Assembly: GCF_058153355.1 (NCBI RefSeq)
Contig: NZ_CM177019.1
DNA: 64,000 nucleotides
Direction: 5' to 3' (one strand)
Part shown: piece after piece, positions 56,113 through 58,648 of the stretch
Layout of the letters: every line of letters begins with the position of its first letter
Numbering within the stretch: the first letter of the stretch is position 1
Notes under the pieces: generated by a model
Told to the model about the DNA's origin: nothing
What the model saw: only the letters and a program-made list of their open reading frames with translations
The model's database searches: none
Position numbers and translations under genes: made by a program

Positions 56113-58648
56113 TGGCTTGTTAGCGGTTCAGCGTCTGGTGCGAGTCTGGAAGTTGATAATGGTCAGATTACCAATATTAATACTGATGTTGCTTACGATG
56201 CCTACCTGGTTGGGTGGTATGGCACTGGAGTGCTTAATATTTTGGCTGGCGGTAATGCCTCCTTAACCACTATTACTACCAGCGTCATTGGTGGTAATGA
56301 GGACTCAGAGGGCACCGTTAACGTTTTGGGTGGCACCTGGCGATTGTATGATAGCGGAAATAATGCAAGGCCTTTAAATGTGGGTCAATCCGGAACGGGG
56401 ACGCTGAATATTAAACAGAAGGGTCATGTTGACGGAGGATATTTAAGGATAGGTTCTTCGACAGGAGGCGTCGGGACGGTCAATGTTGAAGGAGAGGACT
56501 CGGTTCTGACGACCGAATTATTCGAAATAGGGAGTTACGGTACAGGCTCATTAAATATTACGGATAAGGGTTACGTCACGAGTTCAATAGTCGCCATTGT
56601 AGGATATCAGGCGAACAGTAATGGTAAGGTTGTCGTTGAAAAGGGTGGCGAGTGGCTAATAAAAAATAATGATTCCTCAATTGAATTTCAAATTGGTAAT
56701 CAAGGGACGGGCGAAGCAACTATTCGCGATGGGGGGCTAATTACGGCTGAAAATACGATTATCGGTGGCAACCTCACCGGTATCGGAACCCTGAATGTGC
56801 AGGATCAAGACTCTGTCATCACGGTACGCAGACTCTATATATTACTTTTTTGGGCGATAAAGCAAGCGGTATCGGCACACTGAACCTGATGGATGCGACA
56901 TCATCGTTCGATACTGTAGGTATCAATGTCGGTAATTTTGGTAGCGGCATCGTAAATGTCAGTAATGGTGCCACCCTTAATTCAACGGGCTATGGATTTA
57001 TCGGAGGAAATGCCTCCGGTAAGGGGATAGTTAATATTTCAACGGATAGTCTCTGGAATTTAAAAACGTCATCTACTAACGCCCAATTGCTACAGGTCGG
57101 TGTATTAGGCACGGGTGAACTGAATATTACCACCGGAGGTATAGTTAAAGCGCGTGATACACAGATAGCTCTCAATGACAAAAGTAAGGGCGACGTGCGG
57201 GTAGATGGGCAGAACTCTCTTCTTGAAACATTCAATATGAACGTAGGGACGACTGGCACAGGTACGTTAACCCTGACGAATAACGGCACGCTGAATGTCG
57301 AAGGTGGAGAAGTTTACTTAGGTGTTTTTGAGCCTGCCGTAGGAACGCTAAACATTGGTGCTGCTCACGGTGAGGTGGCGGCAGATGCCGGGTTTATCAC
57401 CAATGCGACGAAAGTGGAGTTTGGTCTTGGCGAAGGCGTTTTTGTCTTTAATCATACCAATAACAGTGATGCCGGCTACCAGGTCGATATGCTGATTACG
57501 GGTGACGATAAAGACGGAAAAGTGATGCATGATGCAGGCCATACGGTGTTCAATGCAGGGAATACTTATAGCGGCAAAACGCTGGTCAATGACGGCCTCC
57601 TGACTATTGCGTCACATACGGCAGATGGGGTAACAGGCATGGGTTCGAGTGAAGTAACCATTGCAAGCCCCGGTACGCTCGACATTCTCGCATCAACGAA
57701 CAGCGCAGGAGATTACACGCTGACCAATGCACTCAAAGGCGATGGCTTGAATTCAATATGAACGTAGGGACGACTGGCACAGGTACGTTAACCCTGACGA
57801 ATAACGGCACGCTGAATGTCGAAGGTGGAGAAGTTTACTTAGGTGTTTTTGAGCCTGCCGTAGGAACGCTAAACATTGGTGCTGCTCACGGTGAGGTGGC
57901 GGCAGATGCCGGGTTTATCACCAATGCGACGAAAGTGGAGTTTGGTCTTGGCGAAGGCGTTTTTGTCTTTAATCATACCAATAACAGTGATGCCGGCTAC
58001 CAGGTCGATATGCTGATTACGGGTGACGATAAAGACGGAAAAGTGATGCATGATGCAGGCCATACGGTGTTCAATGCAGGGAATACTTATAGCGGCAAAA
58101 CGCTGGTCAATGACGGCCTCCTGACTATTGCGTCACATACGGCAGATGGGGTAACAGGCATGGGTTCGAGTGAAGTAACCATTGCAAGCCCCGGTACGCT
58201 CGACATTCTCGCATCAACGAACAGCGCAGGAGATTACACGCTGACCAATGCACTCAAAGGCGATGGCTTGATGCGAGTGCAGCTGTCATCCTTCGACAAA
58301 ATGTTTGGCTTTACCCATGCAACAGGAACTGAATTCGCCGGTGTTGCCCAACTGAAAGACAGTACCTTCACACTGGAACGCGACAACACCGCTGCGCTTA
58401 CTCACGCGATGCTTCAGTCTGACAGTGAAAATACCACATCGGTAAAAGTGGGAGAGCAATCCATTGGTGGACTAGCCATGAATGGCGGTACGCTCACTTT
58501 CGATACGGATATACCTGCTGCGACGCTTGCGGAGGGATATATCAGCGTCGATACACTGGTTGTCGGCGCGGGTGACTACACCTGGAAAGGCCGTAACTAT
58601 CAGGTAAACGGGACGGGCGACGTGCTTTCCGCAAGTGCAGATGCATGA
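56113..58648 (+). pseudogene. Autotransporter adhesin passenger-domain fragment (AidA/ydeK-yneO-like), lacking signal peptide and beta-barrel, with internal frameshifts
   Basis: Frame opens after a stop with no start codon; Gly/Thr/Asn-rich beta-helix repeats (GTGTLN, VGxxGTGxLxI); broken into three ORFs (56230, 56850, 57758); no translocator domain. Confidence 0.7.
57230..58271 (+). repeat. Perfect tandem direct duplication, 2 x 521 bp, inside the autotransporter pseudogene
   Basis: Identical minus-strand ORFs at 57348-57542 and 57869-58063 (offset 521); sequence from ttcaatatgaacgtaggg to ggcgatggcttga occurs twice head-to-tail. Confidence 0.8.

Follow-up and report, generated by a model that had tools for sequence, protein, structure and literature searches.

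RefSeq annotates an "ECSE_1600 family autotransporter" in 5,371 of 5,426 complete Escherichia coli genomes, and its K-12 representative is presumably the yneO/ydeK pseudogene. In E. coli 2020CK-00188, which serves here as the intact reference (locus L001), the gene is a 5421-bp CDS between lsrK and hipB-hipA. It encodes a protein of 1806 aa that scores 4117 bits against NF011422. Pfam and NCBIfam recognise in it an ESPR signal peptide, a long passenger with repeats, an autochaperone (AC_1/pertactin) and, at the C-terminus, a beta-barrel. The lsrK-hipBA autotransporter locus decays often. Orthologues of ECSE_1600 are pseudogenes, truncated or absent in many strains (SE11 genome paper, PMC2608844), and we found fragmentary autotransporter genes at loci L006, L007 and L010. 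E. coli BKQWHE (L002) carries an independent deletion that fuses the autotransporter gene to hipA, with endpoints that differ from those described below.

A second point of comparison is the spontaneous tandem duplications that arise in enterobacteria without RecA, by illegitimate recombination or replication template switching and with joints that share few or no bases. Tandem duplications arise and collapse at high rates, as the Roth laboratory reportedly found in Salmonella, and a perfect direct repeat of 521 bp is expected to be lost at an appreciable rate by homologous unequal exchange. The duplication described here resembles the RecA-independent class in its identical head-to-tail copies, a joint with 0-2 nt of homology, its restriction to one strain and its expected reversibility. 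However, it is very small (0.5 kb), lies in a pseudogene and lacks the usual dosage selection, and it has CTTGA and TTGAA/TTCAA motifs 0-3 nt from its breakpoints, outside the joint.

Here, we analyse a stretch of 64,000 nucleotides (the window; RefSeq assembly GCF_058153355.1, contig NZ_CM177019.1) and conclude, with high confidence, that it contains a real, strain-specific and very recent head-to-tail duplication of 521 bp within a non-functional remnant of this autotransporter gene.

Results

When the window was shifted by 521 positions and compared with its unshifted sequence, i and i+521 were identical for every i from 57230 to 57750 and no further, which defines a tandem unit of 521 bp. 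The two copies, at 57230..57750 and 57751..58271 (both on the + strand), lie head to tail, abut without a spacer and agree at 521 of 521 positions; a repeat-family search returned the same spacing (521) at 100% identity. The original prediction of a perfect 521-bp tandem duplication at 57230-58271, with no divergence between copies, is therefore confirmed by the offset comparison. Tandem Repeats Finder is silent on the repeat because the longest period it considers is 500. A perfect, adjacent repeat of this length cannot be chance. In the intact CDS (1806 aa), copy 1 matches nt 1806-2326, which encode aa 602-776, and copy 2 is 100% identical both to copy 1 and to the lone copy in two close relatives (L014 and L016, see below), in which the single-copy state is found between the same flanks.

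Alignment to the intact reference placed this part of the window in five collinear pieces: 52044-56122 (L001 1-4084), 56122-56839 (L001 4691-5408), 56839-57750 (L001 5940-6851), 57751-58627 (L001 6331-7207) and 58626-59176 (L001 11573-12123). The duplicated segment is L001 6331-6851, and the remaining breaks are three deletions. Deletion 1 (junction 56122..56123, 1 nt of microhomology) removed 607 bp and took with it the upstream region and codons 1-55, where the ESPR signal peptide is encoded. Deletion 2 (56839..56840, also 1 nt) removed 532 bp encoding aa 296-471 and shifts the frame. Deletion 3 (58627..58628, 2 nt) removed 4367 bp, which held aa 895-1806, hipB and most of hipA, and left the last 175 bp of hipA as a 3'-terminal remnant (58628..58802, + strand). 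The same four breakpoints recur when the window is compared with ten other E. coli loci, and therefore the changes lie in the window's lineage.

What is left of the autotransporter gene occupies 56123..58627 (+ strand), of which 56123-56839 corresponds to aa 56-295 and 56840-58627 to aa 472-894, with aa 602-776 duplicated. In the alignment to L001 the remnant lacks promoter, start, ESPR signal peptide, autochaperone and beta-barrel. Searches of the window ORFs against Pfam and NCBIfam likewise found no ESPR, AC_1/Pertactin or beta-barrel domain, all of which were detected in the L001 protein; passenger repeats alone were detected, with sub-threshold scores. At 618 and 633 bits, the window ORFs fall below the curated NF011422 cutoff (2335 bits; full length ~1806 aa), and the type Va architecture is missing, its absent parts falling in deletions 1 and 3. 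The orthologous position is retained, with lsrR-lsrK upstream, the hipA 3' remnant downstream and a DNA identity to L001 of 99.5-99.7%. The window locus carries the remnant of the orthologous gene and does not encode a member of the ECSE_1600 protein family. Its initial description as an autotransporter pseudogene was correct, and the pseudogene can now be specified as the ECSE_1600-family gene of the lsrK-hipBA locus, which agrees with intact alleles at 99.5% at the DNA level but is shortened by three deletions. Compared with the family, the window has the same chromosomal position and 99.5% DNA identity over the retained parts, and its copy is degraded, as in many strains; however, its pattern of decay (three deletions plus the duplication) occurs in 0 of the 5,426 complete E. 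coli genomes, and the remnant is below the family cutoff.

Close relatives were located by exact-protein look-ups. The 213-aa ORF of the upstream fragment was found in two Logan assemblies, and the fused 412-aa product of L014 (SRR28786219) led to L016 (SRR8656992). L014 is the same sequence as L017 (GCA_043012465.1), and L016 the same as L018 (GCA_015332025.1). L014 differs from the window by two mismatches over 10.4 kb and L017 by 5 mismatches in 16,121 bp. The contig of L014 is continuous across one copy of the unit and has all three deletions and a fused ORF of 412 aa, while in L016/L018 the unit is single, deletions 2 and 3 are present and the fused ORF again has 412 aa. Deletion 1 is common to the window and L014/L017 and is masked in L016/L018 by a private 1479-bp deletion, whereas deletions 2 and 3 are present in both relatives. 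In both, the unit is identical to the window copies at 521 of 521 positions. Comparison with other strains, which had been proposed as a check on the duplication, thus yields two near-identical relatives that are single-copy with the same flanks. This shows that the duplication postdates the split from strains ~3 substitutions per 10 kb away, and that the deletions are older and common, because the relatives have them together with a single-copy unit. The duplication is private to the window strain, and the gene is dead irrespective of it. The hipBA toxin-antitoxin module has been lost through the 4367-bp deletion in all three strains (the window strain and both relatives).

The junction itself was searched for more widely. 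A 200-nt query centred on it was split in two in each of the best 40 records, all complete E. coli, and its two parts together covered 521 bp of the subject. The junction 40-mer was absent from the 5,426 complete E. coli genomes in a search in which a match requires a 28-mer across the joint, and a 40-nt query from inside the unit, run as a positive control, matched 171 genomes. Neither the GTDB species-representative genomes nor the JGI metagenome contigs gave a match to the junction, and the deletion-3 junction had no match in the GTDB species-representative genomes. Exact products of the junction-bearing ORFs (296 and 303/290/224/174 aa) are not on record; nor are the partial products (173 and 171 aa) that a contig of the 521-bp unit would be expected to give, and neither this unit contig nor the 60-nt unitig of the junction was recovered from Logan. 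A literature search on the three SRR read sets, or on ydeK as an autotransporter pseudogene, found nothing.

The sequence alone had left the choice between a very recent event and a mis-assembly. The read set SRR31441161 has two Logan contigs (k=31) with 100% identity to the window: L015 covers 9.9 kb on the upstream side and stops at 57259 (57229+30), and L013 covers 5.8 kb on the downstream side and starts at 58242 (58271-29). Each reaches k-1 = 30 nt into the unit. In a de Bruijn graph with k=31, a layout X-U-U-Y gives two predecessors to the first k-mer that lies wholly within U and two successors to the last one, so that the upstream unitig has to end 30 nt into U and the downstream one has to start 30 nt before U ends; the observed contig ends agree with both positions to the nucleotide. 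The single-copy relatives assemble straight across the unit, with no break at the equivalents of 57259 and 58242. SRR31441161 is possibly the window's own read set, in which case it provides an independent method rather than an independent isolate. Breaks at the ends of the unit would also fit a dispersed second copy, and the tandem placement as such comes solely from the window assembly. As indirect but specific support for the junction, the graph signature requires read k-mers that join the unit to something beyond its single-copy flanks; a true junction would produce them and a duplication made by the assembler would not, which makes mis-assembly unlikely. Together with the single-copy relatives, these contig breaks tip the earlier choice towards a very recent duplication.

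Two other accounts of the assembly have to be weighed. The duplication may be real but heterogeneous or amplified, being present in part of the culture or in more than two copies, with the assembly representing one resolved state. The graph signature would be identical for a mixture or for three or more copies, and tandem duplications are in general unstable. The assembler chose two copies, neither fewer nor more, and repeats as short as 521 bp should be reasonably stable; we consider this account improbable. An assembly artefact, in which one genomic copy was written twice by the assembler, is less probable again. It would agree with the perfect identity of the copies and with a junction that is found in no other public genome. 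However, in a read set 100% identical to the window the two k=31 contigs next to the unit each end exactly 30 nt within it, their branches need k-mers in which the unit end is followed by something other than TGCGAG and the unit start is preceded by something other than ...GAAAC, and the single-copy relatives show no break at the unit ends. A genuine tandem duplication of 521 bp is the reading that we follow below.

The duplication divides the leftover reading frame, from 412 codons in the single-copy relatives to 290 + 296 codons in the window. The first ORF (56850..57761, + strand) is in the native frame, runs through copy 1 and ends 11 nt into copy 2 at a TGA stop (57759-57761); it has 303 aa from a TTG or 290 aa from the ATG at 56889, and its 618 bits against NF011422 cover positions 489-776 (cutoff 2335). 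The second (57758..58648, + strand; 296 aa) follows the native frame of copy 2, crosses deletion 3 and stops in the out-of-frame hipA remnant; its 633 bits cover positions 605-894 (same cutoff). Its ATG at 57758 is a native internal Met codon, 7 nt past the start of copy 2, and we saw no Shine-Dalgarno-like sequence ahead of it. The frame breaks between the two ORFs because 521 is not a multiple of 3. The frame shift and the ORF break at 57758-57761 had both been predicted correctly, with the addition that each ORF is native within its own copy. The shift has no effect, since start, signal peptide and barrel were gone from the gene before it occurred. A functional repeat expansion, giving a longer beta-helical adhesin passenger or a new expressed protein, might be read from the position of the unit in the repetitive passenger region (T5SS/PEP-CTERM-associated and PATR-like repeats) and from the native in-frame ATG of copy 2, but its probability is negligible, as the copies are not fused in frame at this unit length, the signal peptide, autochaperone, barrel and upstream region are deleted and a Shine-Dalgarno-like sequence is missing before 57758.

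The novel junction, between 57750 and 57751, has 0 nt of homology and lies in a perfect 10-bp palindrome, TTGAATTCAA (57747..57756). The joint reads ...GGCTTGA followed by ATTCAAT..., which creates an EcoRI site (GAATTC) at 57749-57754. At the left breakpoint, between 57229 and 57230 (context 57222..57235), the single-copy sequence reads ...CTTGAAAC followed by ATTCAAT..., and the breakpoint falls in the 3-nt spacer of an interrupted palindrome, TTGAA-ACA-TTCAA. The motif CTTGA is found at the end of each copy (57746-57750 and 58267-58271) and at 57222-57226, where three bases (AAC) separate it from the first base of copy 1 and it misses the breakpoint. A clean slip between CTTGA motifs would give a 524-bp unit with the junction CTTGAAACATTC, from which the observed joint differs. 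The joint is unambiguous, with 0 nt of homology, and the event is not, strictly speaking, a microhomology-mediated (slipped-strand) duplication. Of the CTTGA(A) microhomology that had been reported to flank the junctions, the motif at the unit end holds, but on the left side it sits 3 nt from the breakpoint, and the joint is blunt.

Random breakpoints simulated in this sequence had a 5-nt direct match at most 3 nt from the breakpoint in 1.0% of cases and a 10-bp palindrome across the joint in 0.9%; both figures are post hoc, and the second is not independent of the first. A hairpin is predicted at the left breakpoint, yet it is no better than in shuffled sequence (z = -0.8). We considered the EcoRI site as a sign of cloning and dropped this, given that it derives from TTGAA/TTCAA motifs in the wild-type sequence. 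The junction palindrome and its EcoRI site are probably a coincidence or a by-product of these motifs. The joints of deletions 1, 2 and 3 have 1, 1 and 2 nt of homology, compared with 0 nt at the duplication joint. Besides the duplication joint, four rearrangement joints in the three strains have 0-3 nt of homology, and therefore homology-poor joining is the rule at this locus.

Each relative has a private rearrangement of its own. L014/L017 has lost 195 bp (window 58665-58859), which removes the hipA 3' remnant, and the 1479-bp deletion of L016/L018 (window 55043-56521) removes the 3' part of lsrK and the first autotransporter fragment; both joints have 0-3 nt of homology. The three near-identical strains (~3 SNPs per 10 kb upstream) thus have one private change each within ~4 kb (+521, -195 and -1479 bp), in addition to the three deletions that they share and to differences in repeat number in the LRR gene nearby. 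An unusually high rate of homology-poor structural mutation, at the locus or in the lineage, is conceivable but doubtful on these events. If true, it could have a local cause, for example the TTGAA-ACA-TTCAA quasi-palindrome at the breakpoint, and if the rate exceeded that of the genome as a whole, the region would offer a natural setting in which to measure illegitimate recombination.

A different kind of repeat variation is found 2 kb downstream, in a gene for an LRR protein (60610-61812, - strand; 400 aa in the window). The protein is similar to the leucine-rich-repeat (LRR) domains found in type III effectors of the SspH2/SlrP group (NF011917, 1e-31), and no NEL ligase domain was seen in its 400 aa. 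Its length varies in frame, from 400 aa in the window to 417 aa in L018 (3309-4562) and 449 aa in L017 (1924-3273). Relative to the window, L018 has one and L017 two additional 20-aa LRR units, with a 60-bp tandem repeat at 60733-60979 underlying them, and the N-terminal (SKT)n has 4 copies in the window, 3 in L018 and 7 in L017. Like in-frame repeat variation in surface and effector proteins of this kind, the duplication is a change in the copy number of repeated coding DNA between near-identical strains. However, the variation of the LRR protein uses 60-bp and 9-bp repeats that were already present, and it preserves the frame, whereas the 521-bp duplication arose without a pre-existing repeat at its ends and breaks the frame.

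Other parts of the window bear on its origin. The stretch at 30-52 kb is ~96% identical to the best of the 5,426 complete E. coli genomes, and the autotransporter remnant (56122-58627) is 99.5-99.7% identical to the alleles of, for example, 2020CK-00188, SMS-3-5 and CE10. These identities suggest that the window belongs to a divergent Escherichia lineage and that it has a mosaic, recombined segment at the remnant. One window protein has an allele in common with 'Escherichia sp. 94.0001'. A Shigella origin, suspected from the IpaH-like LRR repeats and the gene decay, was dropped: the window has no repeated IS copies, NCBI labels the relatives E. coli, and the best identity over 30-52 kb is ~96%. 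Divergence from the two relatives rises from ~0.03% upstream of the remnant to 1-2.3% downstream (58860-64000), which suggests that a recombined tract has its boundary in the dead locus or close to it.

Two further features lie upstream. The segment 45605-47353, between a methyltransferase gene and lsrG, contains an IS200/IS605-type TnpB (InsQ) gene of 402 aa (ORF 45651-46859, - strand); the segment is an insertion relative to most of the fetched E. coli loci (L003, L004 and others) and is present in L005 and the relatives. Two adjacent paralogous ORFs of 766 and 808 aa (9908-14817, - strand) have ~72-76% DNA identity at a spacing of 2483-2495 bp. We take them to be the ynfE/ynfF-type DMSO-reductase-family pair of E. 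coli, and they look like an old duplication, unrelated to the 521-bp repeat.

Discussion

The history of the locus can be described in two steps, the order of which is shown by the relatives. In an ancestor common to the window strain and at least two other sequenced strains, three illegitimate deletions (607, 532 and 4367 bp, with 1-2 nt of microhomology) killed the gene together with hipBA. In the window line, a single RecA-independent illegitimate event would then have joined the base after ...GGCTTGA (57750) to ATTCAAT... (57230). Candidates for this second step are template switching or slippage during replication, or unequal joining of sister strands; the mechanism is read from one junction and we hold it loosely. 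The CTTGA(A)/TTCAA motifs by the breakpoints may perhaps have aided misalignment, although the final joint is without homology.

Judged from the anatomy of the remnant, the duplication is almost certainly without function or phenotypic effect, because the remnant has no promoter, start codon, signal peptide or barrel. As a structural variant it is ordinary and neutral. It adds one more case of a very well-known type of mutation, in a gene that is commonly degraded, and it bears on no open question about autotransporters or about how duplications form. For annotation, the ORFs across the repeat are fragments of one pseudogene and not genes. The junction, with its extra EcoRI site, is a clean strain marker that separates the window strain from its closest sequenced relatives. 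As a whole, the locus is a record of the stepwise decay of an adhesin gene, along with the loss of hipBA, in which the order of events can be read from three related genomes.
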